DNA of 51,721 nucleotides from Clostridia bacterium (GTDB lineage Bacteria; Bacillota; Clostridia; Christensenellales; UBA1242). The notes under the pieces were generated by a model. The model did not search any database and was not told the DNA's origin. It worked only from the letters and a program-made list of their open reading frames with translations. This document shows positions 35,847 through 51,721 of this stretch, one piece after another. The first letter of the stretch is position 1, and each line of letters opens with the position of its first letter. The stretch is from positions 1-51,721 of the forward strand of contig JAFSVX010000025.1 of NCBI GenBank assembly GCA_017444785.1. The letters run 5' to 3'. Both the position numbers and the translations under genes were made by a program.

Positions 35847-35874
35847 AGTTGGTCTCCTTAGTATTTTGATTTGA

Positions 35875-35923
35875 ATACAATATATTGTGGTTGATTTTTC
35901 ACTACTACCCCAACAGATTGTGT
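35875..35923 (-). promoter_or_regulatory. Two candidate NrdR boxes upstream of nrdD
   Basis: On the minus strand: CCACAATATATTGTAT (35875-35890) and ACACAATCTGTTGGGG (35908-35923), compared with the consensus ACACAATATATTGTGT. Centres are 33 bp apart. The second box is weak. Confidence 0.4.
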
Positions 35924-36130
35924 TTTTAATATATACCTTCAAAAATCATTTGTCAAACAATTTTTCAAAAAAAATAAAAAAATTTTTAATTTGTACAAGT
36001 TGCACAAACTTAAAAAAGTTGTAAAAAATATTTGGTCAAAAATGGTAAAAAGCAAAAACAGTAAATAGTTGTTTAATTTGATAGAAATTTTACATTTTGT
36101 CGAATTTTTGAAATAAATAATTTTGTAAAT

Positions 36131-36547: not shown

Positions 36548-36587
36548 GCAGGGTTGGCGTAATTGTATAACGCAATCGCCTCCTAAG
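36548..36587 (+). pseudogene. Truncated tRNA-Arg(CCU) 5' half, copy 1 (degenerate D-loop)
   Basis: GCAGGGT-TG-GCGT-AATTGTATA-ACGC-A-ATCGC-CTCCTAA-G. The following GACCT cannot pair with ATCGC and there is no T-arm. The D-loop lacks GG. Confidence 0.6.
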
Positions 36588-36770: not shown

Positions 36771-36810
36771 GTCTCAGTAGCTCAGCTGGATAGAGCACCT
36801 CCCTCCTAAG
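36771..36810 (+). pseudogene. Truncated tRNA-Arg(CCU) 5' half, copy 2
   Basis: GTCTCAG-TA-GCTC-AGCTGGATA-GAGC-A-CCTCC-CTCCTAA-G has canonical 5'-half geometry. The following TATCG cannot pair with CCTCC and there is no T-arm. Confidence 0.8.
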
Positions 36811-36936: not shown

Positions 36937-36976
<40 letters not shown>

Positions 36977-37007
36977 GGACTGACGATTTCTCTTTTTTAT
37001 GGGATAT

Positions 37008-37060: not shown

Positions 37061-37085
37061 CCTGATTTTTGTTAAATCGCACTTT

Positions 37086-37107
37086 TTCCTACGAATTTCC
37101 TACGAAT
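37086..37107 (+). repeat. Tandem 11-bp direct repeat TTCCTACGAAT x2
   Basis: Exact duplication at 37086-37096 and 37097-37107, 8 nt from the integrase stop. Candidate arm-type recombinase site. Confidence 0.8.
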
Positions 37108-37114
37108 TTTATTT

Positions 37115-38512
37115 TTACATTTCTTCATCTAATTTGTTCTTCATTTTCTCACGCCATCTTAAGAATGCTTGATATTCCTCAAAGTCGGCATCAAAGGTGC
37201 TTTCTTTTGCTTCTTCCTTTGGCATTGTTGGAACAACTTTTGATGTAAAATCTTCCGTTATTTCTCGCTTGTTTTTATAAGGATCATGCTCAGATTTAAC
37301 GAAGTTATTTTCACTGTTTTCTGCAAGTTCTCGCTCGTTCTTATCTGCATAAACACCATTGAGTGCGTTGGCGATATTTTGAGCACTTTCAATCTTGCTA
37401 GAAAAGTCAAGGTGGGAATAAATATTTGCAGTAGTGCTGAAGTCAGCATGACCAAGCCATTCTTGTATTTGCTTCATGTGTATTCCGGTAGATAAAAGCA
37501 AACTTGCACAACTATGTCTTAGATCATGAAACCTGATATTTTTTAGATTGTATTTTCTGCAGACCAAATGGAATTGATGTGTTAAATTGTCAGGATACAT
37601 AATTTTGCCGAGTTCATCGACAATTATATAATCTTTGTAAGTGTTGTCATACTTGCTACCATAATATTGCTTATTTAGTTTGATTTGCTCCTTTTTAAGG
37701 ATCAAATCTTTTTCTATTTCAGGTATAAGTGGCAGTGTTCTGAAACTGCTTTCGGTTTTAAGTTTATCTTCACACCATATCTTTCTTCTGCAAATAGTAA
37801 CTTTGTGTTTGATTGTGATTGTTTTTCTGTTGAAATCAATCGCATCCCATTTAAGTCCAATAATTTCGCTTCGTCTAAATCCATAATAACAAGCAAGTTT
37901 AAATGCCAGCTCATTCTTATGTCCTTTAATGCATTGCAAAAACTTTTCCATTTCTTGTTTATCGAAGTATCTTATTGGAGGTTTACTTTCTCTAAAATTT
38001 GGCACTTGTTGAGTGATGTCCTTGCTCAAAATGTCTAATTGATAAGCATTTCTAAGTGCTGGATGTATTATATTTGCGACCTTTTTAATGGTTGAATCTT
38101 TACACCCTTGACTTCGTTTATAATTGTAATAACTAATTAAATCTTGTGCTTTTATATCAATTAGTTTTTTATCCTTAAATAAAGGATATTTTCGCAATTC
38201 TTCAACTCGTCTGCAATAGTTCCAAAATACATTTACACTTAGTGAATTTTCTCTTGAATTTACATAGTCCTGAATCCAGTCTGTAAAGAGAATATTCATG
38301 TATTGTTTTTTGTCAGGTGTTATTGAGTAAAAGTTTGCATATTTGATATTGTATTCTTGGATAATCCTTTGCAATTCTTTGTTTGCTTTTGCTTTGGTTA
38401 TCTCTTTTACATCTCCAATTTGCACCCATTTGGTTTTGTATTTTTTATCAATAGACGGAAGATTTAAAATTGCGTAGTATTTATCGTCTTTGATGGTTAT
38501 TCTACCTGTCAC
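37115..38512 (-). CDS. int: Tyrosine site-specific integrase with ~95-aa C-terminal extension
   Basis: Catalytic signature GFRRSEI (R), HDLRHSCASLLL (H-x-x-R) and GHADFSTTANIYSH (H...Y). The tail after the catalytic Tyr ends KMKNKLDEEM. Confidence 0.9.
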   Translation of the reverse strand: MTGRITIKDDKYYAILNLPSIDKKYKTKWVQIGDVKEITKAKANKELQRIIQEYNIKYANFYSITPDKKQYMNILFTDWIQDYVNSRENSLSVNVFWNYCRRVEELRKYPLFKDKKLIDIKAQDLISYYNYKRSQGCKDSTIKKVANIIHPALRNAYQLDILSKDITQQVPNFRESKPPIRYFDKQEMEKFLQCIKGHKNELAFKLACYYGFRRSEIIGLKWDAIDFNRKTITIKHKVTICRRKIWCEDKLKTESSFRTLPLIPEIEKDLILKKEQIKLNKQYYGSKYDNTYKDYIIVDELGKIMYPDNLTHQFHLVCRKYNLKNIRFHDLRHSCASLLLSTGIHMKQIQEWLGHADFSTTANIYSHLDFSSKIESAQNIANALNGVYADKNERELAENSENNFVKSEHDPYKNKREITEDFTSKVVPTMPKEEAKESTFDADFEEYQAFLRWREKMKNKLDEEM

Positions 38513-38729
38513 TATTAACCTCCAAGAAGTTGGTGTTTAAAAACTCTATCAAATGGCATTTCGCAATTTTATATTCTCGTCCAACCTTACAGCTTTTCAA
38601 CTTGCCCTCTTGGAGTAGTTTATAAGCCACAGGTTTGCTAATTCGTAGAATTTCCATAACATCTTTGACTAATAATACAGGAGAGTAATCATCTAATGTT
38701 TTTACTTTAAATGATTGCTTGTTATCCAT
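38502..38729 (-). CDS. xis: Excisionase-type HTH DNA-binding protein
   Basis: 75 aa. LLVKDVMEILRISKPVAYKLLQEGKLKSCKVGREYKI matches the excisionase/HTH_17 pattern. It overlaps the int start by 11 nt. Confidence 0.75.
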   Translation of the reverse strand: MDNKQSFKVKTLDDYSPVLLVKDVMEILRISKPVAYKLLQEGKLKSCKVGREYKIAKCHLIEFLNTNFLEVNSDR

Positions 38730-38746
38730 AATCTTGTCCTTATATT

Positions 38747-39094
38747 TTATTCAATTTCAATATCTTCAGTTGTTTTCTCTTGCTCATCATCTTCGTCATC
38801 ATATTCATAGAAGCTGATAATTTCTTCGCACATATCATCGTAAGTATAATAAGTGTCATTGTCTAGATAAAGGATAAATAGTTCATCCAAAATCGAGCCA
38901 TCAATTGCAAGCAAATTATTAATTATTTTATCGCTCAATTCGTTTGCATCGTTTTGCAAATATTCTGTGAAATAAGTTTTAAAATCAATCTCAAATCCTG
39001 CATCAAAAATTTCTTCTTTTGAAAGTTCCAATGTCCTTGCTTTGAAATCTTCATAATCTTTTTGTATTCTTTCGTTAAGTGTTTGTCTTTCCAT
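38747..39094 (-). CDS. Small highly acidic hypothetical protein
   Basis: 115 aa with an AAAGGAA RBS. It is D/E-rich with the tail YEYDDEDDEQEKTTEDIEIE, and shares the motif Y..FK....L..E.IF....I.F.....YL with the next ORF. Confidence 0.65.
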   Translation of the reverse strand: MERQTLNERIQKDYEDFKARTLELSKEEIFDAGFEIDFKTYFTEYLQNDANELSDKIINNLLAIDGSILDELFILYLDNDTYYTYDDMCEEIISFYEYDDEDDEQEKTTEDIEIE

Positions 39095-39111
39095 ATTATC
39101 GTTCCTTTTGA

Positions 39112-39453
39112 TTAAATTTCTTCAAGTGCTAAATCCAATATATTTCTCATTTCAAAAATAAAATCAAAACTAAATTCAGTTGAGAATATGTATTCTTTGA
39201 ATGCTTTGTAGCATTTTTCCATAAGTTCATATTCACTTTGTAACTCACGCATTTCATTTAAAGACAATTCTGTCAGTAAATATTTTTTTAATAATTTCAT
39301 AAAAGAGATTTTATAAGATTTGTTAAAAATTTGCTCAGAATTCAAGTTTTTTAATGAATTTTTGAATTTTTTATACTCATTTTTCACTTTTTCTTCAAAT
39401 TTTTGAATATCTTGCAAATCTTCATCTCTTAATTTATTTGTTGCTTCTATCAT
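39112..39453 (-). CDS. Small helical hypothetical protein (weak paralogue of 38747..39094)
   Basis: 113 aa with a GAGGTA RBS. KNEYKKFKNSLKNLNSEQIFNKSYKISFMKLLKKYL aligns with KDYEDFKARTLELSKEEIFDAGFEIDFKTYFTEYL. Confidence 0.65.
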   Translation of the reverse strand: MIEATNKLRDEDLQDIQKFEEKVKNEYKKFKNSLKNLNSEQIFNKSYKISFMKLLKKYLLTELSLNEMRELQSEYELMEKCYKAFKEYIFSTEFSFDFIFEMRNILDLALEEI

Positions 39454-39457
39454 TTGA

Positions 39458-40204
39458 TTACCTCAAAATAAAACTAGTTTGTCCATTTGCATCACAGCCA
39501 TCAAGTCTATCTAGTGCAACCTTATACCATTTAGGATTTATCTCAATTCCAATGTAATTTCTATTTAGTTCTTTGCAAGCGACTGCAGTTGTGCCGGAGC
39601 CAAGAAAACAATCTAATACCAAATCATTTTCTTTACTACTATTTCTTACAAGAGTTTCAATGATGTTTAGTGGTTTGCAAGTTGGGTGATGGAAGAAGAA
39701 TTTATCAACCTTGTTTGTTGGGTTTCTGAATACTGTTCTTGCATCTTCATAAGATTGTGGATTGCATACACCGGCACCTCTAAAGTAGAGGCAATATTCA
39801 ACATCATTCAAATATTGGTGATTGTAAAGTGGCATTACATTCGGCTTGTTCCAAACTAATATTTCAAAGTTCAAATCTTGTTTGTTAACAAAATAATTTA
39901 AATACATTGGAATTTGTTTTCTGTTGCACCAAATATAGATATTGGGGACTTTCATTATTCGCATAAACTCATCAAAGATTTCTTCTCTGATTCCTTGCGT
40001 GATATTGTTGTCCATTAGTTCATTGTTGAGTCTGTTAATGCATTTAGTTATCTCATTTGTTGTTCTAGAAAGCGATTCTTCGGATTTTGGTTTGCCATCA
40101 ATTTGATAAGGAGGATCTATGACAATCAAATCAATGCTTGCATCATCAATTTGTTTTATCATTTCATAGCAGTCGCCAAGATAAATGTTGTTCTTTTCTA
40201 ACAT
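39458..40204 (-). CDS. Orphan beta-class N6-adenine/N4-cytosine DNA methyltransferase
   Basis: Motif IV IVIDPPYQ lies near the N-terminus and motif I DCFLGSGTT near the C-terminus. No restriction endonuclease gene is adjacent. Confidence 0.85.
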   Translation of the reverse strand: MLEKNNIYLGDCYEMIKQIDDASIDLIVIDPPYQIDGKPKSEESLSRTTNEITKCINRLNNELMDNNITQGIREEIFDEFMRIMKVPNIYIWCNRKQIPMYLNYFVNKQDLNFEILVWNKPNVMPLYNHQYLNDVEYCLYFRGAGVCNPQSYEDARTVFRNPTNKVDKFFFHHPTCKPLNIIETLVRNSSKENDLVLDCFLGSGTTAVACKELNRNYIGIEINPKWYKVALDRLDGCDANGQTSFILR

Positions 40205-40515
40205 TACATTTCCTCGTCTGACTCTTTTCTTGCTTTTTTAAATTTAGCATCAAAAAGTATTCTTCCTATGGTTTGTGGCATTAAGTAATCAAAATCTTTT
40301 ATTTCATAATCCTCATATAAATCCCACGCTTTCTTTAATATGTGTTTCTCATTTAAGAGAGTTTCAATTTGTTGTTCATTGTATTCGTTTTCTTTTACTT
40401 CACGAATTAAGGCTTCCATAAATTTGGCTTTTAAATTAAAGTTATTTAAGCCATCCTCAACTAAAACCTCATATTCGTTTTCCATATCTGAAATAAGAGC
40501 TTCTTTGTTTGACAT
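40204..40515 (-). CDS. Small hypothetical protein ending KKARKESDEEM
   Basis: 103 aa. Its stop overlaps the methyltransferase start (ATGTAATG). Confidence 0.65.
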   Translation of the reverse strand: MSNKEALISDMENEYEVLVEDGLNNFNLKAKFMEALIREVKENEYNEQQIETLLNEKHILKKAWDLYEDYEIKDFDYLMPQTIGRILFDAKFKKARKESDEEM

Positions 40516-40558
40516 TTTATACCTCGTAGTTTAGTTTTCGCTCTTTCAAATATCTCTT

Positions 40559-41077
40559 TTACATTTCTTCGTCTGATTGTTTTTGCTTCTTTTTAAAGAT
40601 TTGATATTGCTTGATTTCATCTGCATTGAAATTGTCTGAATCAACAACATTTTCTTCATAGATTTCTTTTAAATCCTGTTTTACATCTCGTTCATTTACA
40701 TGATTGTAATCATAATATTTCCATTCATTTTTTAAGGTGAACACATAGAAGTAATCTATAAAATCATTGTTGTAAAACATCTCATCCTTTGTGACATAAA
40801 ATGGCTTTTGATTGCTTTCGTGTCCATCTCTGCCATAAGCATAGCAAACATCATCTTGCTTGTGGTCATGGTCATGTGGCTTTTTAGGATTTGGATTTAT
40901 TTTAGATCCAAGACTTCTCAAATCTCCAAGATTAAGCAGTTCATCCAGCTTTTTTCTGTTTGAATAATGGTTAAGAAGAATTGCACCATTATGTGTTAGA
41001 TAACCATCAAAATGACAGTAAATTCCTTTGTAGTGACCATCTTCTAATTCCATCAAGATATGACTTCGTGTACTCAT
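40559..41077 (-). CDS. Hypothetical protein ending KKKQKQSDEEM
   Basis: 172 aa. The N-terminal segment GHYKGIYCHFDGYLTHNGAILLNHY looks like a conserved mobile-element domain that I cannot name. Confidence 0.65.
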   Translation of the reverse strand: MSTRSHILMELEDGHYKGIYCHFDGYLTHNGAILLNHYSNRKKLDELLNLGDLRSLGSKINPNPKKPHDHDHKQDDVCYAYGRDGHESNQKPFYVTKDEMFYNNDFIDYFYVFTLKNEWKYYDYNHVNERDVKQDLKEIYEENVVDSDNFNADEIKQYQIFKKKQKQSDEEM

Positions 41078-41430
41078 TCCATACCTCCATCTTCTTCAAA
41101 TTCTTGCATTTGATGAATGTATTTTTCAACTGCTCCTGAACAGATTTGACTGTTGTGCATTGGGAGTTTGCCCAGTGCACAGTCAACCAAATCATCAAGG
41201 ATTTCAGTGTTTTTATGCATGACTTTTAGTTCATCATCAGAGAATGTTTTTGCCATTTCAGATATGTAGAAATGCATTTGGTTATAAAGGTTTATAACTC
41301 CTGCATTTTTTACAAATGAATCCAAACTAAATGTTAATAGTCTATGCATTTTATAGTGTTCAAAGTTTTTGTCTGAATTGTTTTTTAAATTGTTAATCAT
41401 TTCTTCTCGTGATATGTCACATTTCTTCAT
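41074..41430 (-). CDS. Small hypothetical protein
   Basis: The start is set at MKKCDISREEM (41430), nested in the stop region of the upstream gene (ATGAAGAAATGTGA). The longer track ORF would overlap that gene by 110 nt. Confidence 0.55.
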   Translation of the reverse strand: MKKCDISREEMINNLKNNSDKNFEHYKMHRLLTFSLDSFVKNAGVINLYNQMHFYISEMAKTFSDDELKVMHKNTEILDDLVDCALGKLPMHNSQICSGAVEKYIHQMQEFEEDGGME

Positions 41431-41887
41431 CGCTGTCATCCTCATCTTCAAAATCTTCATCACGATAAACAAATTTGAATTTGCCATCGCATTCGTAAAT
41501 TGAGCCGATTTTTGCTTGCTCCTCATACTTTACAAGTTTTTCACTATTCAAGTATTTATCTGACAAATCTTTGAGAATAAATTCATAGTCGCCATCATCA
41601 ATAGCACGGTCAATTTTGTCAAGTATAAGTTGACTTTCAGGCATATATTTATAAAGCCAATTTGCATAAGAGGATAGGTCATTAGCCCAACCCTCAAGGT
41701 AATGACTGTTATCATATACATCGCCATCGTTATACCATTTATAAACAAGTTTATTTATGGCTGTAACTATTTGTGTTGCCATGTTTTCACCCTCGCCACG
41801 ATCAGGCAAGTATTTGTCATTTATTTCTCTAAATCTGTCATAATATTCCCATTTAACACGCTTATCAAAGTTCTGCATCGCCATCAT
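41417..41887 (-). CDS. Hypothetical acidic protein ending EDEDDSDEEM
   Basis: 156 aa. The start is ambiguous (41887, 41884 or 41878) and overlaps the end of the upstream gene. Confidence 0.6.
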   Translation of the reverse strand: MMAMQNFDKRVKWEYYDRFREINDKYLPDRGEGENMATQIVTAINKLVYKWYNDGDVYDNSHYLEGWANDLSSYANWLYKYMPESQLILDKIDRAIDDGDYEFILKDLSDKYLNSEKLVKYEEQAKIGSIYECDGKFKFVYRDEDFEDEDDSDEEM

Positions 41888-42677
41888 CCTCTATATCTTC
41901 ATAAGTTCCTGTTTCTTCATTATATCTAAAGAATTCTTCGCCACCCCAAAGTTCAAATGATTGTTCGTACGCTTCCTTTGAATAATTATCATTTACTCGC
42001 TGTGAAATTATTTCTCCATTTTGACAAGTGCAGGATCCAGTGTAATACCCAAGCTGTTCTTCTGCATATTTGTAAGAGAAAGTGTTTTCAGGATGCTTTG
42101 CTGATAATTCCTTTATAAGTTCACGAACATCTGACCATGCTGTGTCAAATTGCACTTTATTTGGAGTGTCTTTTTCATAAATCGTTTCACAAGCATTCCA
42201 TTTTGTACCCCAATTTTCAACGCACCAATCATACCAATCTTTGGCTCCATAGTTTATGATGTTGTCGTAAACTCTTTTGCCATAATTAATTACATCTTGT
42301 TTGGTTTTGAATACTGGGAACATTGGATCATCTTCTTGTGGCTCTCTATGACTTTTTAAACAATCATCAATTATTTTTTTAATCTCTGATTGTGATTTTA
42401 GATATCTATCTTCTTTGAAAAATTCAGGAACTCTGCAAGCTTCGTAAAATGTTTTTAATACAGAAAATTTTTCAGGTTTTGGGAGAGTAGACAGATAGAC
42501 AGCGAAGCAATCATCTGTTGTTGTCCCTGATATGATTAACAAATCTTCAGGCATCTTTTTTATTAAGTTAAAATCAAAAACCGTATCTCCGTATTTATTC
42601 TTATGAATATATTTTTTTAATACTTTGTCGGCATCTTTACCATCAACTTTCAAGACACCTCGTACCCAGTTAGGCAT
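41865..42677 (-). CDS. DUF1281/Api92-like ferredoxin-fold protein (tentative)
   Basis: The N-terminal MPNWVRGVLKV and internal ENWGTKWNA resemble the MPNWC...NWGTKW signature of plasmid and phage DUF1281 proteins. Confidence 0.45.
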   Translation of the reverse strand: MPNWVRGVLKVDGKDADKVLKKYIHKNKYGDTVFDFNLIKKMPEDLLIISGTTTDDCFAVYLSTLPKPEKFSVLKTFYEACRVPEFFKEDRYLKSQSEIKKIIDDCLKSHREPQEDDPMFPVFKTKQDVINYGKRVYDNIINYGAKDWYDWCVENWGTKWNACETIYEKDTPNKVQFDTAWSDVRELIKELSAKHPENTFSYKYAEEQLGYYTGSCTCQNGEIISQRVNDNYSKEAYEQSFELWGGEEFFRYNEETGTYEDIEDDGDAEL

Positions 42678-43500
42678 TTACACCTCCAATTGGTTGAAAT
42701 TTGTCGCTATATAATGACCATAAGTTGTGAGTTTTGTATTGCTCAACAAGTTCAGCAGGAACATAAATCGTTTGTAGATTTGGACAGTTAGAGAATGTTT
42801 GGTAAACCTCAGTCATTGAAGTTCTAACAACTGAATCGTGTCTGATATAGACCGTTTCAAGTTTTGAACATCTGTTAAATGCTCCAAGTCCAATTGATTC
42901 TACATTTGCAGGAATATCGATTGTTTTAATTGATGTATTCCAAAATGCGTATGGCTCAATCTTTTTAAGGTTGGCAGGGAGATGGACTTCTTCTAGTGAA
43001 ACACAATTCCAAAAGCAACTATCTCCAAGTGATTCCAAACTATCTGATAGTGTTAATGATCTTAGATTCCTACATTCTCTAAAAACAAATAATCCAATTC
43101 TTGTAATTTGATTTGGCATTATTACTTGTTCAATGGTTGAATTATTGTAAAACAAATTATCTTTAATTTGAGTTACGCCATAATCTTCGCCATTGACTGT
43201 GTAATGTGTTGGTATATTGATAATTGTGTCGTTGCCACTATAACCAATCAATACATTGTTTTTGAAAGTAAATCCCTCAACGACTACAGCTGTGTTTGAT
43301 GTGTCATCTGTTCTATAAGTTTCGTAAACAACTCTTGAAACTAATGCGAACAAAAAGAATACACTAGCACAGCAAATAATTAGTAGTTCTCCCCAAGAAA
43401 TTGTCTTTGTTGCCACTTTTTCTGCATTTTTTGGCGTTTTTTCATCAATTTTTGCAGTTTTTTCTTTTAATTTTTCATTTAGGTTAAAATTATTTATCAT
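42670..43500 (-). CDS. Membrane-anchored BspA-type leucine-rich-repeat protein
   Basis: N-terminal TM (WGELLIICCASVFFLFALVSRVV) followed by ~23-aa LRRs: FRECRNLRSLTLSDSLESLGDSCFWNCVSLEEVHLPANLKKIEPYAFWNTSIKTIDIPANVESIGLGAFNRCSKLETVYI. Confidence 0.75.
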   Translation of the reverse strand: MINNFNLNEKLKEKTAKIDEKTPKNAEKVATKTISWGELLIICCASVFFLFALVSRVVYETYRTDDTSNTAVVVEGFTFKNNVLIGYSGNDTIINIPTHYTVNGEDYGVTQIKDNLFYNNSTIEQVIMPNQITRIGLFVFRECRNLRSLTLSDSLESLGDSCFWNCVSLEEVHLPANLKKIEPYAFWNTSIKTIDIPANVESIGLGAFNRCSKLETVYIRHDSVVRTSMTEVYQTFSNCPNLQTIYVPAELVEQYKTHNLWSLYSDKFQPIGGVNA

Positions 43501-43910
43501 AATTCAACCTCGCTTTCACGCATTTTCTTTACTGCTTTTTCAATAAGTTCCTGTGAGTGAAAATATATATCTTCGCCATTATGAAGTTCATAATCTTTGA
43601 GATAATCATTTATCGTTTTCACTTGTTTATCTGTCAGGCTGATATTATCTCCACTTTCATCTGTTGCTGAAAAAATACAAGTTCCCAAAATACAATCTCT
43701 GAACTCAGGAACAATGAAGTTTCCAGCTCTGCCAAACATTTTTCCGTTATCATCAATAATCATTGAGATATCTCTGTCTATTGGTAGCGAACACATTTCA
43801 ATCAAATCGCAATTTATTATTTTATAAAATGTGTGTAGGTCATTTTTAATATTATCTTCATAAGCCGGTTGATAAGGTTTTTTAATTACTACTCTTATTG
43901 TTTCTTCCAT
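43497..43910 (-). CDS. DUF3846-like protein
   Basis: 137 aa. The pattern VVIKKP...DLIEMCSL..DISMIIDDNGKM resembles DUF3846 of conjugative elements and polyvalent proteins. Confidence 0.5.
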   Translation of the reverse strand: MEETIRVVIKKPYQPAYEDNIKNDLHTFYKIINCDLIEMCSLPIDRDISMIIDDNGKMFGRAGNFIVPEFRDCILGTCIFSATDESGDNISLTDKQVKTINDYLKDYELHNGEDIYFHSQELIEKAVKKMRESEVEL

Positions 43911-44151
43911 TGTTTGCTCCTGTTTCTACTCGTGATTTACAGTAGCCTTTGTATCTGACCAGCTGATTTGGATTGGTGTAGAATGCTTGTTGAATTGCAA
44001 CACCGATCATGTCATAAAATTCTTGATATTTTGTGTTTGGAGCCAAGTTTGGATTTTTTCTTAAAGAGCGAAGTTTTGTCATAAGTTCGTCTTTGTTTTC
44101 AAAATCTACATTGTCAACAAACGATGTAATTTCTCCATTTATTCTTAACAT
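43882..44151 (-). CDS. Small hypothetical protein
   Basis: 89 aa. Its ATG overlaps the ArdC-like stop (ATGTTAA) and its 3' end overlaps the next gene by 29 nt. Confidence 0.45.
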   Translation of the reverse strand: MLRINGEITSFVDNVDFENKDELMTKLRSLRKNPNLAPNTKYQEFYDMIGVAIQQAFYTNPNQLVRYKGYCKSRVETGANNGRNNKSSN

Positions 44152-45164
44152 TGTTCCACCTCAGCTTTCTTTGTTGTTTTTCTTGTTCTTTTTGGCTTTT
44201 CAGGTGCTTTTTCTTCGATTTCAGGCTCTTTTTCTTGTTCTTTGGTTAATTCCTCAGGCTCATTTGCGTTTTCTTGAACTTGTGCTTTTTCTTGCTCTCT
44301 AAGGTGAGATTGAAGTGCCGGCTCAACTTTTGATAAAATTTGATAACTTACACTTCTGATTACATCAAGGTTGTTTTTAAACTTGTCAATGTCGCCATCT
44401 GCCCATTTTGTAATATAGCCCATATTAAAGTCTGCAGTATGAAGTCCAAGTTTGTTTGAAACAACTAGAGCAATGCTTTCAGCTTCAATTTCTCTGATTT
44501 GTGTTTGTTCTTTCTTTGTCAGTCCATTAAAGTTTGTTCTAACTCTTTCTTCTGCAAGAGCATGACCAATTTCGTGAATAAGAGTAGTGAGAGTTCTTTC
44601 AAGTGGCATTCCATCTTGAATAACAATCACTTTATGAGTGAAATCACAATATCCATCAACACCATCGTTTTCGATGTTTGCAAAGTTAACATCGTAGCCA
44701 CGAGGAACGCTTACAAGTGCGTCTTTGATTGTTTCAAAGTTCTCTTTTGCAATATTTTCATCACACTTAAATTCGTAAAGTTCACGCCCCTCAGTTTGTG
44801 AAATGTCAAATACATGAGCTACTTTATAACCCATAACCTCAAATTCTTTTGTTTCTACAACATTGCCATCTTCATCGAGAACATCTTCTTTTCTTATTTC
44901 TCTTAAAGGGGCAATGATTTTTATTGCTTTTTGTCCTTTGATTACATTTCTGTGGTTGTAGTTCCAAACTTTCATTCCATTTACACACCTTGCTGTTGGC
45001 ATTTGTGAAAGGATCAAAAGTTGGTTGGTGATGGAATAGCAATTCAAGTTGCTCATTGAAAGCAAAATGTCTTTATATTTTCCATCTTTTATAAATTGTC
45101 TGAACTGTTCTTCGGCTTGTTTTATTAGGTCGTCAACAGTCGTGTATGTCTTAGTTTCTTCCAT
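44145..45164 (-). CDS. ArdC-like protein (ssDNA-binding N-domain plus zincin metalloprotease)
   Basis: The N-half (YSITNQLLILSQ...VWNYNHRNVIKGQKAIKIIAP) is like ArdC-N/DUF1738. It has the HEIGH zinc motif (LIHEIGHALAE) and a K/E-rich tail. Confidence 0.65.
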   Translation of the reverse strand: MEETKTYTTVDDLIKQAEEQFRQFIKDGKYKDILLSMSNLNCYSITNQLLILSQMPTARCVNGMKVWNYNHRNVIKGQKAIKIIAPLREIRKEDVLDEDGNVVETKEFEVMGYKVAHVFDISQTEGRELYEFKCDENIAKENFETIKDALVSVPRGYDVNFANIENDGVDGYCDFTHKVIVIQDGMPLERTLTTLIHEIGHALAEERVRTNFNGLTKKEQTQIREIEAESIALVVSNKLGLHTADFNMGYITKWADGDIDKFKNNLDVIRSVSYQILSKVEPALQSHLREQEKAQVQENANEPEELTKEQEKEPEIEEKAPEKPKRTRKTTKKAEVEQC

Positions 45165-45172
45165 GTTTTCTC

Positions 45173-47794
45173 CTAATTTTCAAATATTTCTCTAACAAGT
45201 TCGCTTGCAACAATCTTTATATTTGTCCTTTTTGCAGGACCTGTGATAAAGAATGCACAACCTCTTGGTAGATTAACGATGTTATCACTTTCAGTTTCGT
45301 TTATTTGTCCAGCTCTTTCATAAAGAGTACACAAGTCATTCATATCATTTGGTGCAAGTGAGAAGATGAGTGAATATTGGCTAACATTGATTATGGCTGA
45401 TGATTTTCTCGCAATTTCAGGACTACCGACAAAGTCCTTAACATTTTGAGTAATGACAATTTGCATTCCATCATATTTTCTGATTCGTTTTGCAAGGTTG
45501 TACATAAAGTCCAGTGCTATTGGGAACTTTTCATCAATAAACACATGGGCTTCGTCAATTGCTATTATTATTTTTCTACTGGTGTTGTAGAGTCTGTTGT
45601 AATCCCTATTTCTAATGACTTCGTTATCAAGCCATTTAAGGACTAATAGCATTTGAGCATTTGCTAAAACATTGTTTTTATTTGCTAGTAATTTTTGAAA
45701 ATTAAAGCATATAAAATTCTCTTGTGGAGCAAATGTTGTGTAGCCATTCCATAGTGCCGAATTTCTTCCACCTTTTCTAAACTTGCTAAGGTAATTTGAT
45801 ATGGTTTTTAAACAAGATTTATTGTATTCATCTGTTTCTTGATCAAGCTTCGCATCAACAATGTTTGCCAAGTCTTGAAAGATTGGATAGTCCTTTGGTG
45901 TTAGCGAAGTTAAATCAGTTTTTTCTGTTATGTGTTTTTGCCTGTATGTTTCAAGTATTAATTTGTTTAGAAGTTCCAAGCTATCTGCATTAATTCCAAC
46001 TAATATCAATCTGAAGAACTCTTCCAAGAATTGCAGATGTGCATAGAATGAGTTGTTTGTTCCATCGGAGTTTTCATCATCCAATGAATCAATAATTTGA
46101 AATGGATTTATAATTCCATCTTTACTACTTGAAACATCAATTGCTGTTCCGTGCATATTTCTTGCTAGATTTGTGTACTCGTTTTCAGGATCAAGTATGA
46201 ATACTTTTGAATTATCACTTGCTAGCCCTGTTAGTATTGTTTTAGTTGCAAATGATTTACCAGATCCTGATTTACCAATAATGATCATATTTGAGTTTAC
46301 TCGTTCATCATCTCGTCTGAAAAAGTCAACAAAGGTTGGTAGTTTGTTTTCTCCAATAAGAATACCTTGCTCATCTAATATCGCATTGCTAACAAATGGG
46401 AAAGCAGAGGCGAGAGAGGATGAGTTGAGACCTCTTGAAATGTTAAGTTTGTTTTCTTTGCACACCTGACTTGCCATATAGCCATCAATTTGTCTGCCAA
46501 ATAATTCTGTAAACTTGAAACCCATTTCTCTTAATTTTCTTCTAACAAATCGTTTGTTTGTGGTTTGTTTAACATCGTCATAAGCAGTTATTACAAGTGT
46601 AGCATCAAAGAATGCTTCATTGTCATTCTGAAGTCCAACGAGTGTGCTTTGTAAACTTGTTAGGTGTGTTTCTTTATCAATTTGAAAACTTGCTTTTCCA
46701 AGATCTCTTTGACTAAGCAATTCATTTATTGCGCCATCAATTCGTTTGATGGCTTTGAGCTTGTCCACTGGGACAGCTTTTAAAACAACTTTTGTGTTTG
46801 GCAAATCAAATAGTTCTTGAGCCCATGCATTTGGGACTTGCAAAGGATAGTCCGTTATTGCAAAATGCGTTAACTGTTTGTTGTCTTGTATGACCTTTGA
46901 TGCTTTGAAACTTACTACATCCGGAACGGATAAACTTATATAATCTTTTGGTTGTATCTTTTCAAAATCTCTTTCATCAAAGTTGTTTGTGTATGAGTAT
47001 TTGATAAATAGGGCTAATTCTTTATCATTCAACTGTTTACTTTCAAGATTATTATTGTTAAGTGAGTTTTTTATTAGATTTAATGATTGCTGTAAACTTT
47101 GTCTATCAATGTCGTGAAGCACAATGTAATATACACTTGTTAAAACTCTTTCATTTGAGTTTAATCTGTCAACAATATTGATTCTATCTTCTAGAACTAA
47201 AGCTCTTGATCTGAATTCATCTTCTGATAAATTCTTGTTTTCATTTGCAAGTATTAAGTCCTGCATTTTGTTTAATTCATTTGATATGTAGTTATCAAAA
47301 ATTATTGGTCTTTCAAGTTTTACAATGTTTATTTCTTGATATATTCCAACATTTTTCAGTATTGTTGAAAGCACTCCATCAATAAAGTAATTTTGTTTTG
47401 ATTCACTTAACATATTGAATTCAATAGGTTTTACTTCAATTACTCCTGTGAAACCATTTACTTTTTGTTTTATGATATTATTCTCAATTTTCTCGTATGG
47501 AACTACACTAGCAATATTGGATCTTCCGTGTTTATTTCTTCTAAATGTTTTTTTAGAGAATGCAAATTTCAATCCATAAATCATTGCATTATATAGTTTT
47601 ATTTCTCCTATTGGAATAAACAATGGAGCAAACACCATAAGAATGACAATTGCAATTATAAATTTATTTGGTAGATTACTTGATACTGCTAGTGCTAAAA
47701 AGCCAAGTCCAATAACTGCTAAAATAACATCGGCAATAGTAATTCCTTTATAAAATTGAAGTTTGACCTTTGTGTTTTTAGGTATGATTCTCAT
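45173..47794 (-). CDS. VirB4-like conjugative T4SS ATPase with N-terminal VirB3-like TM segment
   Basis: 873 aa with two N-terminal TM helices, Walker A IIIGKSGSGKSFATK and Walker B IIIAIDEAHVF. Confidence 0.85.
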   Translation of the reverse strand: MRIIPKNTKVKLQFYKGITIADVILAVIGLGFLALAVSSNLPNKFIIAIVILMVFAPLFIPIGEIKLYNAMIYGLKFAFSKKTFRRNKHGRSNIASVVPYEKIENNIIKQKVNGFTGVIEVKPIEFNMLSESKQNYFIDGVLSTILKNVGIYQEINIVKLERPIIFDNYISNELNKMQDLILANENKNLSEDEFRSRALVLEDRINIVDRLNSNERVLTSVYYIVLHDIDRQSLQQSLNLIKNSLNNNNLESKQLNDKELALFIKYSYTNNFDERDFEKIQPKDYISLSVPDVVSFKASKVIQDNKQLTHFAITDYPLQVPNAWAQELFDLPNTKVVLKAVPVDKLKAIKRIDGAINELLSQRDLGKASFQIDKETHLTSLQSTLVGLQNDNEAFFDATLVITAYDDVKQTTNKRFVRRKLREMGFKFTELFGRQIDGYMASQVCKENKLNISRGLNSSSLASAFPFVSNAILDEQGILIGENKLPTFVDFFRRDDERVNSNMIIIGKSGSGKSFATKTILTGLASDNSKVFILDPENEYTNLARNMHGTAIDVSSSKDGIINPFQIIDSLDDENSDGTNNSFYAHLQFLEEFFRLILVGINADSLELLNKLILETYRQKHITEKTDLTSLTPKDYPIFQDLANIVDAKLDQETDEYNKSCLKTISNYLSKFRKGGRNSALWNGYTTFAPQENFICFNFQKLLANKNNVLANAQMLLVLKWLDNEVIRNRDYNRLYNTSRKIIIAIDEAHVFIDEKFPIALDFMYNLAKRIRKYDGMQIVITQNVKDFVGSPEIARKSSAIINVSQYSLIFSLAPNDMNDLCTLYERAGQINETESDNIVNLPRGCAFFITGPAKRTNIKIVASELVREIFEN

Positions 47795-49166
47795 CAGATT
47801 TCTCCTGTGGTTTTATTGGCTTTTTTAGTGATTGTGCATGATTAAATAAAGTGTCGCCTTTAATCACATTGTTAACTCTTGGCACAAAGTTTTTGCCCAT
47901 TCCAACAATTCCACCATTGGCAAGGTCTTTCATCATGCCAATAGGAAGTGTTGCTATTCTTGAAGGCATCTTTGCATATCTTGACAGCTTGCTTGGATTA
48001 TCCATTGCTTCAACACCTTTACTAACGGGGGATGAGAAAGTGCTTTTCATTCCACCTGCGAATCCACTAGACTTATTTTGATCCATAAAGTGTTTGCCAC
48101 CAAGAATTGCTCCACCAATACCCATAGCTGTTGCACCGACAGCTCTTGTGATATTTTTGCCAGTTCTCATATTTGCAATGAGTTCTCGAGTTTCACTGCC
48201 ACCTGCGTGACTGCCTGTGAGGTTGGCTATAACTATGTTTGCTTTTGTAACAGCAAACGCTCCACCGATAAGGAATAGAAGTTGCACAATTCCATTTTTG
48301 AAAGCATTACCAAAGAATGCTATTTTCTGAACTTGTGGTATGATGATGAAGAATAAATTCATTGAGAGGATTATTCCATACGCTCCCAGCACTTTTCCTA
48401 TCATCATTTCTTTCCATTGCTTAAACCGTTGTCCATCGTCTGTTGGGATAGTGGACACACTTATCGGCGACACTATGTAAAGTAAGATGATGTCAAAAAT
48501 CCTTTGTATAAAACTTATTGAGCTCATGACGAACATTACTAAAATTACAAGTCCACCAACTATTCCAATAAAGAAATCTAAATCTCTTATTTTGTAATAT
48601 TCTGCGACCACATCTTTATTGTTGTAATCGAGTTCGCCAGTTATAAATTTCAGTTCAATTTCTTCTCGTTCGCTCGGATCTCCAATGTAGGCATAATATC
48701 CACTTGTCACTAAAATCTGACCACCGATTGTTGCTTCTTGACCAGATTCTAGCGTGTATGGATTCATTGCTGTATTGACAGATTTTACTACTGTATTTGA
48801 CAGTGCAATTCCTGATATCAGGATGAATGGAACAATAAGGAATATCATAAAACTTTGAAATGCTTTGCCCATTATTAAAGTCTTACTTTTCTTATTTTCT
48901 CCATTTGCATATTCGCTTCTTATGATTGCAATTATTACGAACATAATCAGCAATGCAACTGCTACAAGCATGACGAGTAAAAATGATTTTTTGACCTTGT
49001 CAGAAAGTAAAAAGTTTGATAATAAATCAGTCCTTTGTCCATTTATTTCTACGGGATCAATACCTGCCAACATATAGAAAATTTCTTTTATGAAATCGAT
49101 AATATAGCAGATTGTTTTTTGTATTCCGTAGAACAAATCAAAGATCCAATTAGTTAACCAATCCAT
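47778..49166 (-). CDS. Polytopic membrane protein, candidate VirB6/TrbL-like channel subunit
   Basis: 462 aa with at least 6 predicted TM helices and a Gly-rich C-terminal region. It lies immediately upstream of VirB4 and overlaps it by 17 nt. Confidence 0.5.
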   Translation of the reverse strand: MDWLTNWIFDLFYGIQKTICYIIDFIKEIFYMLAGIDPVEINGQRTDLLSNFLLSDKVKKSFLLVMLVAVALLIMFVIIAIIRSEYANGENKKSKTLIMGKAFQSFMIFLIVPFILISGIALSNTVVKSVNTAMNPYTLESGQEATIGGQILVTSGYYAYIGDPSEREEIELKFITGELDYNNKDVVAEYYKIRDLDFFIGIVGGLVILVMFVMSSISFIQRIFDIILLYIVSPISVSTIPTDDGQRFKQWKEMMIGKVLGAYGIILSMNLFFIIIPQVQKIAFFGNAFKNGIVQLLFLIGGAFAVTKANIVIANLTGSHAGGSETRELIANMRTGKNITRAVGATAMGIGGAILGGKHFMDQNKSSGFAGGMKSTFSSPVSKGVEAMDNPSKLSRYAKMPSRIATLPIGMMKDLANGGIVGMGKNFVPRVNNVIKGDTLFNHAQSLKKPIKPQEKSDENHT

Positions 49167-49169
49167 TGT

Positions 49170-49688
49170 TTACTCCTGCAGGAAGATGACTAAACTATCA
49201 AATTGAAATGGTGATAAATTGTCATCTTCATTTGTTTTGATTTCTTCTACTTCAATGTAAAATTCAGTCGTGTAATTACATTCAATTGCTTGTTCAAAAA
49301 ACATAGCGACATCTCTTGTTTTTCCACTTGTGAGTTCTACGGTTTTTGTAGACAAATTTTCTTCTTCAATGTAAGTTGTAAATTTCAGTGTGCAATTTTT
49401 AGAACTTCTAACAATAAATGCAACGCCTTTAATTTGACAACTCTGTCTTAAATAAATATCTAATTTGCAGTAAGGTTTGCTTTGAATACTACTATTAAAT
49501 TCTGTGTTATCCACAAGAGTTCTCATCTGATAATAGGTTGTGTTTCCCATGTTGTCTTGTGCATCAACACCGTCAAATAATTCACAGTATTGCTCCTCAG
49601 AAACTACTCCTGAAACGCATCCTGTAAAACTAAAAATTGCAATTAAAATAAGAGAGAGTAAACCGATTATTTTGAGAACTTTTTTCAT
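49170..49688 (-). CDS. Lipoprotein
   Basis: Signal peptide MKKVLKIIGLLSLILIAIFSFTGC with a lipobox Cys, 172 aa. Confidence 0.7.
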   Translation of the reverse strand: MKKVLKIIGLLSLILIAIFSFTGCVSGVVSEEQYCELFDGVDAQDNMGNTTYYQMRTLVDNTEFNSSIQSKPYCKLDIYLRQSCQIKGVAFIVRSSKNCTLKFTTYIEEENLSTKTVELTSGKTRDVAMFFEQAIECNYTTEFYIEVEEIKTNEDDNLSPFQFDSLVIFLQE

Positions 49689-49702
49689 TTAATTTTTCCT
49701 TA

Positions 49703-49993
49703 TTATGATATCTGAGTTGATACCCAGTTTTGTAAAATTGGCATCAATACTTTTAGTCCTACGATCAATACGAAGATGACCACAAAACCGATAATGGCTC
49801 CGATCAAATCTTTCTTTGCTTTCTCTCTCGATCCTGCTTCGTCAGCCTTTGCAAGCTTAACTCCAAGTATGATGCAATAGATTGTTCCTATTGCTCCGAC
49901 TAGCCCAATGGCTGGCCACAAAATAGCATTAATAATTTCTAAAACCGGTGATGTAACTGGTGTAAAATCAACGGCAGCAAGTAAACTTTTCAT
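49703..49993 (-). CDS. Small two-TM protein, candidate VirB2/TrbC-type pilin-like subunit
   Basis: 96 aa with two hydrophobic helices separated by a charged loop (KADEAGSREKAKKD). GGAGGA RBS. Its position is upstream of the channel and ATPase genes. Confidence 0.45.
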   Translation of the reverse strand: MKSLLAAVDFTPVTSPVLEIINAILWPAIGLVGAIGTIYCIILGVKLAKADEAGSREKAKKDLIGAIIGFVVIFVLIVGLKVLMPILQNWVSTQIS

Positions 49994-50090
49994 TTATAAA
50001 ATATCCTCCAAAATTTGTTATTTATCTCAATCAATTTTGAAGTTCTTATAAGCAAATTACTGCACAAGTTAAAGTGGGTTTCCCACTTCT

Positions 50091-50211
50091 AGCAGGGAGT
50101 TAGAGGTGCAACAAAAATGTATCGCTCATTTTATTGCTGTAACAAAATACTGCCGGTATTTAGGGACTTTTAGGCACTAAATCCGTATTTTGTTGCAACT
50201 CTTTTCCTGCT
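50091..50211 (-). other. Highly structured intergenic element (function unknown)
   Basis: The long-range interrupted stem pairs 50091-50099/50203-50211, 50102-50105/50199-50202 and 50107-50116/50188-50197. An alternative 12-bp helix pairs 50139-50150/50185-50196. Inner hairpin at 50156-50184, and an extra hairpin AGTGGG-TTT-CCCACT at 50073-50087. Confidence 0.6.
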
Positions 50212-50245
50212 TAATTAAAGATTTAAGAGAATACGCCTCAAAAAT

Positions 50246-51721
50246 CTATTTTTCTTCAATACTTTCAATTTCTTCAGTTGTTTCTTCTGTCGTAGTTATT
50301 TCTTTGCTTCCTTTGTAGAATCCTTTTCTATTTTTCACGAGGAATATTATAAGAATAACTACTATTGCAAGCATTCCACCAAAGAGTGCAATGGTGGCAC
50401 CGTTGAACGAATAAACAATTGTAAATTGATATTCTGTTTGGTTGCCTGCTTGGTCACTTACTAGCAATTTATAACTTCCAGCATTTGTCATTTTATCTCC
50501 AACATTGTATTCAAATTCTTCGCCATCAGCCGATGCTTGAATGTAGATTGGAGTTTCAGATGGGCTTCGTGTTGACACTTCATTTTTTGTAAAACCACCA
50601 TTTTCAACGCCCACCAAAACTAAGGCAGGTGGAGTCGTGTCAATACGCAATTTGAAGCTGAAATTTTTGATTTGTGATTTATCAAAAACGGTGACTGTGT
50701 ATTCAGCTTCATCGACTAAATAAAGTGTGTTGTCTTGTATGTCAAGAGGGATAATTTCATCGTTCATTTGTATCTCAATTATCTCCACACTTTCATCTAA
50801 TCTTTTCTCAATTCTTCCAAGTGGTGTATTCAAAATTGTGAAGTCAAAATATAATTGATTTCCAATTTCATCTGTAAGAATAAATTCATAAAATCCATCG
50901 TCATATAAGATTTGCTCAAAGTTATAATCTATCTTTTCTTTGTTCCTGTACATATCAATTTTAAGTTCTTCTTTGGCAATGACTCTGACGCCACCATTTG
51001 AAATTCCACCCTTGAAAGTGTTAATATCAAACATTATTTTATTGTCAATTTGGAAGTTAAATTTGACATAATTTCCAGCTCTGTCTTGAACAATGACTTC
51101 GTATTTTCCGTTCAGTTTTATCTCAGTGCCACTTGAATATGCTCCCTGTGAGACGCCATCACGGGAGATGGTAGAAGTGACATTTTCTTCATCCCAAACG
51201 ACCTGAACGAAGTCACTTGTTGTGCCATTATTTTCCACTCCAATTAGAGAGGCAATGGGACTTGTTTTATCAATTTCAAATTCAAAATATTTATTGTTTC
51301 CAAAGTCGTCATATATCCTTACAAGATAGTTACCCTCGTCATTAAAATATGTTCCAAATGAGTAAGGATAATTTTCAGAATCTTTGGTTATCTCGATGTG
51401 TAAATCTTCAAAGTTTACGATTACAAGGCTTTTATTTGTGTACCTTATTTCTTCAATAGTTTTCTCAATATCTTCTTCATAGATTTTAAAGTCTAGTGAT
51501 TTATCTATTTCAAAATATTTGGTGTTTTGGTTTCCTAATTCATCTGTGAGTGTGATTCTATAAGCTCCCTCAATGGTCAAAACTTGACCATTATTATATG
51601 CCTTTTCATCTCCATCATTTAGACTGTAAATCGCTTTGTATCCACTTTGAATTTCCCATCTTGCAAACACATCACTTGAGGTCGTTCCATTTTCATCTAC
51701 GCCATTAAGTGTAAATTCAGG
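50246..51721 (-). CDS. Ig-like-repeat surface protein with C-terminal TM anchor (5' end outside window)
   Basis: The frame stays open to position 51721 (PEFTLNGVDENGTTSSDVFARWE), so the GTG at 51670 is not the true start. There are six ~75-aa repeats with D.(A/L/F)GN....F.F.ID motifs. C-terminal TM ATIALFGGMLAIVVILIIFLV. Confidence 0.75.
   Translation of the reverse strand, partial: PEFTLNGVDENGTTSSDVFARWEIQSGYKAIYSLNDGDEKAYNNGQVLTIEGAYRITLTDELGNQNTKYFEIDKSLDFKIYEEDIEKTIEEIRYTNKSLVIVNFEDLHIEITKDSENYPYSFGTYFNDEGNYLVRIYDDFGNNKYFEFEIDKTSPIASLIGVENNGTTSDFVQVVWDEENVTSTISRDGVSQGAYSSGTEIKLNGKYEVIVQDRAGNYVKFNFQIDNKIMFDINTFKGGISNGGVRVIAKEELKIDMYRNKEKIDYNFEQILYDDGFYEFILTDEIGNQLYFDFTILNTPLGRIEKRLDESVEIIEIQMNDEIIPLDIQDNTLYLVDEAEYTVTVFDKSQIKNFSFKLRIDTTPPALVLVGVENGGFTKNEVSTRSPSETPIYIQASADGEEFEYNVGDKMTNAGSYKLLVSDQAGNQTEYQFTIVYSFNGATIALFGGMLAIVVILIIFLVKNRKGFYKGSKEITTTEETTEEIESIEEK

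Follow-up and report, generated by a model that had tools for sequence, protein, structure and literature searches.

A basic-then-acidic C-terminal tail ending in methionine on proteins of conjugative elements from Clostridia, possibly a recruitment signal for type IV secretion

The stretch of DNA analysed here (the window) comprises 51.7 kb of a Clostridia bacterium (contig JAFSVX010000025.1, positions 1 to 51,721), and its part from 37115 to 51721 is, according to Pfam annotation, an integrative and conjugative element (ICE) in which several proteins end in the same short peptide. The open reading frames (ORFs) concerned lie on the minus strand, and their C-terminal ends were read by translation. 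Counted from the integrase end, Pfam gives the order tyrosine integrase, HTH_17 excisionase, two DUF3848-like proteins, an N6/N4 methylase, the small proteins that carry the tail described below, DUF1281_C, a BspA-type leucine-rich repeat (LRR) protein, DUF3846, ArdC with a zincin-like peptidase domain, VirB4, a TrbL/VirB6-like protein and a pilin of the type IV secretion system (T4SS). Near-identical copies of the ICE in metagenome contigs (L084-L087) extend past the end of the window and add a MobL relaxase, a VirD4-type coupling protein (gene at L084:3301-5334) and a 1478-aa surface-type protein.

Four of the first nine ICE genes, numbered from the integrase, encode proteins ending in DEEM, namely the integrase, a 103-aa, a 172-aa and a 153/156-aa protein (Table 1). 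An earlier note on this DNA had made this observation and had called the four proteins otherwise unrelated, and both statements were borne out: translation places DEEM at the end of each ORF, and blastp with the tails removed detects no mutual similarity. The codon differences described in that note are also there, with Ser encoded by TCA, TCA and AGC in the three tails that contain it; across the four tails Asp is encoded by GAT, GAC, GAC and GAT and the first Glu by GAA, GAG, GAA and GAA, and the stop codon is TAA three times and TGA once. In a six-frame translation of the window DEEM occurs four times, every time immediately 5' of the stop codon of an ICE gene, and the DNA pattern GAYGARGARATGTRA has four matches in the window and none in 100 dinucleotide-preserving shuffles. 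A chance origin of the tails is ruled out by these shuffles together with the occurrence at ORF ends only. The description of the tail as K-rich applies to the integrase and to the 103-aa and 172-aa proteins but not to the 153/156-aa protein, whose tail is acidic. Because three wobble positions and the stop codon are the only differences among the four 15-mers, the window alone cannot separate conservation of the peptide from conservation of the DNA. The claim of peptide-level conservation stands on the comparative data that follow.

For this comparison 80 genome loci around homologues of the 172-aa protein were fetched, from metagenome-assembled genomes of Clostridia, Christensenellales, Oscillospirales and related groups; ORFs were called mechanically and clustered into families, representatives were annotated, and ORF counts were made over 84 related loci. 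Methionine is the commonest last residue in these loci (279 of 1524 ORFs), and single loci reach nine Met-ending ORFs. On the ICE strand 21% of the ORFs end in Met and 11.4% in Glu-Met, against 2.3% and 0% of all other ORFs. The composition of 213 distinct tails, taken position by position, begins with 23-35% Lys/Arg at -12 to -6 and an enrichment of Gln, Ser and Asn at -6/-5, followed by 39% Asp/Glu at -4, by Glu, Met, Ala or Ser at -3, where Met is fivefold enriched, and by 54% Glu at -2 before the Met at -1, and Lys/Arg are nearly excluded from the last four positions (4% or less). Homologues of the 172-aa protein with 39-53% identity keep the K-rich run followed by (S/A)DEEM, LEEEM or QEEM, behind a linker that varies from absent to about 40 residues, and many more distant homologues are still Met-ending (…TQTM, …EQTM, …GVM). 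A syntenic ICE at another insertion site (L001) encodes five Met-ending proteins (…DSDAEM, …DYDDEM, …HADEEM, …QSDEEM and …NLDSEM) and one ending …DGEMS. Some orthologues have Leu in place of Met, as does the DUF1281_C protein of the window (Table 1), whose orthologues end …DSDAEM in L001 and …DDGDEEM in L085. In a further 5% of the ICE-strand ORFs one extra residue follows the Met (EME, EMS, EMC). As judged from these alignments, DEEM represents a local version of a short linear motif, placed at the very end of the protein and built from a basic run, a polar hinge, acidic residues and a terminal Met-COOH. About one protein in five of these elements carries this tag, and so do thousands of integrases. 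The idea of a shared recognition tag, put forward in the earlier note, is thus well supported, only that the unit DEEM was drawn too narrowly; what is conserved is a basic run and, behind it, a Met at the C-terminus that in most cases follows Glu.

Is the tail selected as a peptide, or is it a by-product of the DNA that encodes it? Glu at -2 is encoded by GAA in 109 and by GAG in 40 tails, against a background of 76:24, and stop codon usage is also near background. Synonymous codons at background frequencies indicate selection at the level of the peptide. The string GAR-ATG-stop was found 149 times at called ORF ends, 46 times elsewhere on the ICE strand and 27 times on the opposite strand; a signal blind to frame is expected to fall in frame in only about a third of the cases. 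A rival view is that GAR-GAR-ATG-stop serves as a Shine-Dalgarno (SD) or translational coupling signal for the next gene and that the peptide has no function. Many tightly packed gene pairs do have GGAG or GAGGA in the tail codons at a distance of 5-9 nt from the following start, as in the gene of the 103-aa protein (GAGGAAATGTAATG), in which the tail codons GAG GAA form the GAGGA SD of the methylase gene, whose start overlaps the stop (TAATG). In the same way the ArdC tail SEVE(QC) (44145-44165; L001:6892-6912) is encoded by GGAGGT-N7-ATG, which is the SD and start of an overlapping 89-aa gene and fully explains this tail, and GAG makes up 35% of the Glu codons at -2 when a start follows within 12 nt versus 22% otherwise. 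As a general cause, however, coupling is contradicted. Relative to the downstream SD and start the Met codon lies before them, inside the spacer or far away, with no fixed position, and Glu is about as frequent at -2 whether a start follows within 12 nt (0.56) or none follows within 60 nt (0.57). The integrases, which have no coupled gene downstream, are Met-ending in 19 of 24 cases, with three more ending …EME or …GME. For their wider homologues, grouped at 90% identity, 91 of the best 120 clusters have a terminal M, which in 86 is preceded by E, and the typical tail is a [KR]-rich run followed by D-[FIAM]-E-M. Where Leu is terminal, its codons are mostly CTA, TTA or CTT, which are not start codons. 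We consider it hardly credible that coupling accounts for the tail at large; it fits only individual cases, such as the 103-aa protein of the window and the SEVEQC end of ArdC. Two related candidates were rejected as well, a terminal Leu codon that doubles as a start (TTG accounts for only 4 of 42) and readthrough fusion with the next ORF (in frame in 33%, which lends no support).

A second nucleotide-level rival holds that tail-coding DNA shuffles or deletes gene cassettes, so that the likeness of the tails reflects copying and not selection. A deletion of about 450 bp in one near-identical copy (L085:18080-18200 compared with L084:18080-18620) is of the kind this would predict, since it removes the gene of the 153/156-aa protein exactly between the acidic tail-coding ends of this gene and of its neighbour DUF1281_C and leaves the hybrid tail …DDGDEEM, and the 103-aa protein, an orphan, carries a perfect tail; a search of 5.8 billion proteins returned only a 98%-identical copy of it. 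Against copying, Ser is encoded by AGC in one tail and by TCA in others, the Asp, Glu and stop codons differ too, and diverged elements keep the amino-acid pattern only. No conserved DNA site or dedicated recombinase has been seen so far at the tail junctions. Recombination between tails looks like a consequence of their shared sequence and not its cause, and as an explanation of the tail it is scarcely conceivable. The nucleotide-level and recombination explanations together carry a very small probability. Codons, frame, position, coupling, integrases, Leu variants and Ser codons all contradict a nucleotide signal, and on this comparative evidence the tail is selected as a peptide.

Table 1. 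Coordinates of tail-bearing and contrasting features of the conjugative element in the 51.7-kb window.
Feature	Position	Strand	Basis or remark
Tyrosine integrase, last ICE gene, tagged	37115..38512	-	Pfam Phage_integrase and Phage_int_SAM_5; no coupled gene downstream
Integrase tag, KMKNKLDEEM-COOH	37118..37147	-	stop codon 37115..37117; integrase C-terminal end also given as …REKMKNKLDEEM
103-aa orphan protein, tagged	40204..40515	-	weak DUF3848-like Pfam match, below threshold
Tag of 103-aa protein, KKARKESDEEM-COOH	40207..40239	-	ORF translation
172-aa protein (family 0, invariant MSTRS…IYCHxDGY core), tagged	40559..41077	-	no Pfam match
Tag of 172-aa protein, KKKQKQSDEEM-COOH	40562..40594	-	ORF translation
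DGGME-COOH, Met-Glu variant on 118-aa protein (41074..41430)	41077..41091	-	GGAGGTATGGAATGA, which also contains the SD and start of the next gene
153/156-aa protein (family 50), tagged	41417..41887	-	likely start 41878, as called in L084
Tag of 153/156-aa protein, EDEDDSDEEM-COOH	41420..41449	-	acidic tail, no basic run
DDGDAEL-COOH, Leu variant on DUF1281_C protein (41865..42677)	41868..41888	-	ORF translation
ESEVEL-COOH, Leu variant on DUF3846 protein (43497..43910)	43500..43517	-	ORF translation
Untagged ICE backbone, for contrast	42670..51721	-	Pfam; LRR surface protein, 89-aa protein, ArdC (…AEVEQC), VirB4, TrbL/VirB6-like protein, 172-aa protein, pilin and start of a large adhesin-like protein; the tagged DUF3846 gene 43497..43910 also lies inside

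Structure predictions are consistent with a peptide that is exposed. In the AlphaFold 2 model of the 172-aa protein the core (residues 1-144) has a predicted local distance difference test score (pLDDT) above 90 and the tail (145-172) one of 64-73; the core itself gave no fold match in the PDB at E ≤ 0.001. The integrase model is confident to about residue 385, falls below pLDDT 50 at 403-443 and 460-465 and contains a helix at 442-464, and the tag ends a C-terminal extension of about 80 residues. In the integrase alignment a hypervariable linker of 25-110 aa is followed by a conserved EELExxLEEKKK, the K/R run and D-x-E-M, and a few homologues lack the whole module. According to these models the tag hangs on a flexible tether of variable length past the folded core.

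The 153/156-aa protein, family 50 of our clustering, offers a different view on the same end. A search against 1.84 billion representatives gave 352 matches, in which the domain mostly lies inside larger proteins (118 of 150 representatives exceed 200 aa, with a maximum of 1482 aa). The native end of this family is an acidic run followed by an aromatic W, Y or F (…DEEDY, …EEEEW, …DEDDF), and only 2 of 150 end in EM. Within ICE loci all five homologues are Met-ending. The replacement of the ancestral aromatic residue by Met in this ICE clade points to selection for Met. The acidic ends with W, Y or F resemble docking tails of the SSB or gp2.5 type. Pfam recognised almost nothing in nine long proteins with the family-50 domain, and these are not shown to be classical polyvalent proteins.

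Tails resemble the others of their own element more than they resemble tails of the same family elsewhere. Most elements similar to the one in the window use EM almost throughout; L037 has nine Met-ending ORFs, none with Glu at -2, and L021 has no Met-ending ORF and six tails with one residue after the Met (SEMT, KEME, EEME, EEMV and twice SEME). The same element carries tandem integrase genes (L021:11244-14003; 379 and 534 aa), both ending …SEME. The extra codons of such EMx variants are one step from a stop codon in 32 of 56 cases, equal to the baseline of 0.54, and an origin of these variants as stop-loss products was rejected. Since their extra codons are no nearer to a stop than expected, they are not simply broken tags. 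Co-evolution with a single reader encoded by the element would produce such a flavour common to its tails.

The distribution of the tag over protein families is uneven. In ICE loci the 172-aa family is Met-ending in 52 of 83 members. Similar or higher shares were found for a Cys-rich family of about 135 aa (family 6; 29 of 29), DUF3846 (17 of 27 and 6 of 6, for example …MAEM, …ITEM and …ESVM), DUF1281_C (15 of 25), a prim-pol (6 of 9), a pentapeptide-repeat protein (15 of 24) and Amidoligase_2 (6 of 7). A DnaG-like primase is Met-ending in 8 of 18 cases, others of its members having …DEME or …EEMS/C, a 197-aa family (n=33) has 15 members ending in M and 17 in L, and ArdC is Met-ending in 6 of 34. 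The secretion machinery and surface proteins behave otherwise: no Met-ending member was found among VirB4 (0/65), TrbL/VirB6 (0/52), coupling protein (0/24), pilin (0/13), LRR surface protein (0/31) or adhesin-like protein (0/14), nor among the methylases (0/43), Xis (0/9) and DUF3991-Toprim (0/25), and the NlpC/P60 hydrolase has a single one (1/34). A notable contrast lies within the recombination module, where Xis, which acts in excision in the donor only, is untagged and Int, which is needed in the recipient too, is tagged. A tag that is present on putative substrates and absent from the machinery is what would be expected of a T4SS signal.

The core of the 172-aa protein has spread widely among phages and plasmids, with distant homologues in jumbo phages, cyanophages, Enterococcus pLS20-like plasmids and, beside pndC, in Salmonella plasmids, and it appears from its occurrence to be a widespread mobile-element protein. 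The tag does not follow it. In 80 IMG/VR loci that contain the family, a control drawn from different hosts, 1.1% of 2364 ORFs are Met-ending, among them none of the 73 family members, which stop right after the core, and in an Enterococcus pLS20-like plasmid with MobL and VirD4 one of 35 proteins is Met-ending. All tagged integrases that were looked up belong to a T4SS ICE, to a locus with MobL and a coupling protein or to a small MobL element, and none was seen in a phage context. In L172, a T4SS ICE, the tagged integrase is accompanied by tagged proteins to a total of six; in L176 it adjoins MobL (…AHEME) and a coupling protein. The small element (L169:5248-11266, also L170 and L177) has about seven genes including MobL, xis and int and no T4SS within 10 kb upstream of the integrase, and still carries tags on its relaxase (…SQNEM), a 228-aa protein (…KLDFEM) and its integrase (…KKKDFEM). 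It is probably a mobilizable element dependent on a helper ICE. A second short integrase and restriction-modification cargo are also present on it. An untagged relative sits in a small element with Rep, xis and int. On these counts the tag is family-specific, marks a defined set of soluble proteins and is limited to integrative conjugative and mobilizable elements (MobL relaxase, VirD4-type coupling protein, VirB4/VirB6 T4SS) from Clostridia of the gut and their relatives.

A C-terminal peptide of this kind could also control protein stability. If it were a degron or stability tag read by a host or element protease of the Clp, Lon or FtsH type, the tagged proteins would be short-lived after induction or entry, and an exposed, disordered C-terminal peptide with a hydrophobic last residue on proteins expected to act only for a time would suit this role. 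ClpX signals of the MuA type also combine a basic run with a hydrophobic end. The tag shares with ssrA and MuA signals the short C-terminal format and the hydrophobic last residue. It differs from them in the lack of an Ala-Ala end, in its acidic last four residues and in its restriction to element proteins: the tails end [DE]-x-E-M, with no enrichment of Ala at -1 or -2 as in the …LAA ends recognised in ssrA/ClpX signals. Moreover, Xis, the classic unstable partner in phage systems, never carries the tag, and neither do regulators. The tag is also absent from neighbouring host ORFs and from phage homologues, and the shifts of flavour in L021 and L037 point to a reader encoded by the element. 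A degron is on this evidence quite unlikely.

Alternatively, the tail might bind some other hub, such as a relaxosome or transfer scaffold, an element-encoded chaperone or adaptor, or the transferred single-stranded DNA itself. In the last variant the basic run would bind DNA, the acidic end would act as an autoinhibitory lid and the proteins would ride with the DNA without being secretion substrates. Binding to a hub by way of an acidic tail that ends in a hydrophobic residue is common, as in the SSB C-terminus, T7 gp2.5 and the TraD tail that binds TraM, and the bipartite basic-then-acidic tail and the native acidic W/Y/F end of family 50 speak for such binding. The SSB tail …DDDIPF and the acidic tails of T7 gp2.5/gp4 are generic docking peptides that resemble the tag in being acidic and disordered with a hydrophobic last residue. 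In those systems, however, a single hub bears the tail and many partners have the pockets; the tag, by contrast, is spread over many proteins, has Met as its last residue and includes an upstream basic run. Binding of the TraD tail to TraM was reportedly described by Lu et al. 2008. That system is closer in that it belongs to conjugation and uses an acidic tail, the last hydrophobic residue and carboxylate of TraD inserting into a pocket and coupling the relaxosome to the coupling protein; its polarity is nevertheless reversed, with the tail on the coupling protein and the pocket on the accessory protein, and one tail serves one partner, while the tag is found on many proteins. The partners in that case are the C-terminal tail of TraD of the F plasmid and TraM, which binds it (PMC8406263). 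Evidence against another hub comes from the 10-kb flanks, in which no candidate hub gene is conserved across all tagged elements apart from T4SS, type IV coupling protein (T4CP) and MobL, and from the small MobL elements, which have no accessory genes and still carry three tags. We regard another hub as unlikely, though not far-fetched. The beta-clamp motif QL[SD]LF was considered separately and dismissed; at -6/-5 there is an enrichment of Gln, yet the residues at -4 and -2 are acidic and not hydrophobic.

We propose, with a rough probability of 0.45, that the tag recruits proteins to the type IV secretion system, in line with the translocation signal suggested in the earlier note. The comparisons establish at the level of sequence a peptide-level, tethered, family-specific and element-specific C-terminal tag, from which we infer a common receptor, most probably the VirD4-type coupling protein. 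Recruitment to the T4SS fits best because of the split between tagged and untagged families, because of the restriction to T4SS and MobL elements, including small ones that need helper machinery, and because of the likeness to known T4SS signals. For substrates of the Agrobacterium VirB/D4 system (VirE2, VirF, VirD2) a C-terminal transport signal is known (Vergunst et al. 2005, cited in PMC8406263). Like the tag, that signal lies at the extreme C-terminus, is unstructured, is common to unrelated proteins and includes a cluster of positive charge. It is Arg-rich and net positive to the end, whereas the tag has four acidic-type last positions with an invariant Met and occurs in Gram-positive-type Clostridia hosts; Lys/Arg reach 23-35% only at -12 to -6, and the tail of the 156-aa protein has no basic run. 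A second comparison is the E-block of Legionella and Coxiella Dot/Icm, a Glu-rich C-terminal signal bound by DotM. The E-block shares with the tag the degenerate acidic residues in a disordered C-terminus and is itself read by a coupling-protein complex, but it directs type IVB effectors into eukaryotic cells and has no invariant last residue, while the tag belongs to conjugative T4SSs of the VirB4/VirD4 kind without Dot/Icm components and ends in Met.

If the tag acts in this way, the T4SS would carry the tagged proteins into the recipient, together with the transferred strand or next to it, and they would act there before expression of the incoming DNA is possible. Integrase and primases would form this cargo with some of the relaxases and ArdC proteins, and with DUF3846, DUF1281_C and small acidic proteins that are possible anti-defence factors. 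The side chain of the terminal Met and the carboxylate would occupy a pocket of the receptor, and the acidic residues, together with the basic run before them, would steer the tail electrostatically. A further line in favour comes from Tn916, for which int is reportedly needed only in the donor (Bringel 1992, listed in PMC5812530), a result that was reportedly interpreted as possible transfer of the Int protein. Parts of such a cargo have precedents: the conjugative primases TraC1 and SogL and ArdC travel with DNA (PMC5512222), and the F-plasmid T4SS moves several plasmid proteins (PMC8406263). The polyvalent proteins have a similar repertoire (ArdC-N, zincin-like peptidase, primases and many small domains presumed to accompany the DNA into the recipient), although they fuse the domains in one polypeptide, while here separate small proteins each have their own tag (PMC5512222).

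Several points weigh against T4SS recruitment. The support is circumstantial. The relaxase of the ICE in the window, encoded beyond its end, closes with the Glu-Leu variant …VIEL and not with EM, and the 12 Met-ending MobL relaxases out of 27 belong largely to a single clade of close relatives with the end …GLKM. The tag is missing from DUF3991-Toprim and the methylases, though they might be useful in the recipient. The EMx variants fit poorly with a strict recognition of Met and carboxylate, and some C-terminal conservation in the operon is driven by nucleotides, as the SEVEQC end of ArdC and the greater share of GAG at -2 near a start indicate. Finally, the phages of the control have other hosts, which leaves room for a host-specific degron.

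Beyond the element at hand, we tentatively suggest that a tail of the form …[KR]n-x-[DE]-x-E-M-COOH is the general export signal for a large group of conjugative and mobilizable elements of the Gram-positive type (MobL/VirD4) in the gut microbiota. Should the tail be an export signal, the C-termini would list the proteins that each element injects, including the integrase, and small mobilizable elements would copy the tag for use with helper T4SSs; we hold this with the same reserve. The earlier note knew of no such motif, and our literature search, which covered signals for T4CPs of Gram-positives, conjugative systems with C-terminal methionine, DUF3846 and the transfer of proteins by ICEs, likewise found no published description. 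C-terminal targeting peptides of conjugation systems are a known kind of signal; as far as the tails themselves indicate, what is new would be the bipartite basic-then-acidic build, the invariant terminal Met and the setting in Gram-positive-type integrative conjugative and mobilizable elements.

Some further observations concern the reading of the window and its host side, which carries NrdD. This protein (33483-35942; ATP-cone and NRDD) has a glutaredoxin/thioredoxin-like domain fused at its C-terminus, and a 3089-aa ORF lies at 18423-27692. With this ORF and a full-length NrdD the window is consistent with code 11, and genetic code 4 was rejected as an artefact, the tails also ending equally at TAA, TAG and TGA; several of the source gene calls on L085-L087 read through TGA (for example …DDSDEEM*HITRRND), code 4 apparently having been chosen for these low-GC contigs. 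Between NrdD and the integrase end of the ICE there are three segments on the plus strand that resemble the 5' half of a tRNA (36556-36587, 36776-36810 and 36940-36977). An acceptor and D arm (TAGCTCAGCTGGATAGAGC) and an Arg-CCU-like anticodon loop, CTCCTAA, are present in every one of them, and each stops at …CCTCCTAAG; no tRNA was called there by ARAGORN or Rfam. By their sequence the segments look like attL remnants of serial integration into the 5' half of a tRNA gene, and if they are, the ICE end may be near 36977. Just 3' of the integrase stop codon lies a perfect tandem 11-mer (TTTCCTACGAA, twice, at 37085-37106), which may be a candidate pair of arm-type binding sites of the integrase.

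How conjugation systems of Gram-positive bacteria choose their protein substrates, and which proteins besides the relaxase enter the recipient, is largely unknown, and it is an old puzzle how an ICE integrates in the recipient without int being expressed there. If the tag turns out to be a degron or a peptide that binds another hub, it would still be an undescribed regulatory device of these elements. If it is a recruitment signal, a portable tag of 10-12 residues would predict the set of injected proteins for thousands of elements of gut Clostridia, including candidate anti-defence proteins, and would explain how small MobL elements plug into helper systems. It would also offer a handle for the delivery of proteins into gut anaerobes that are hard to transform.

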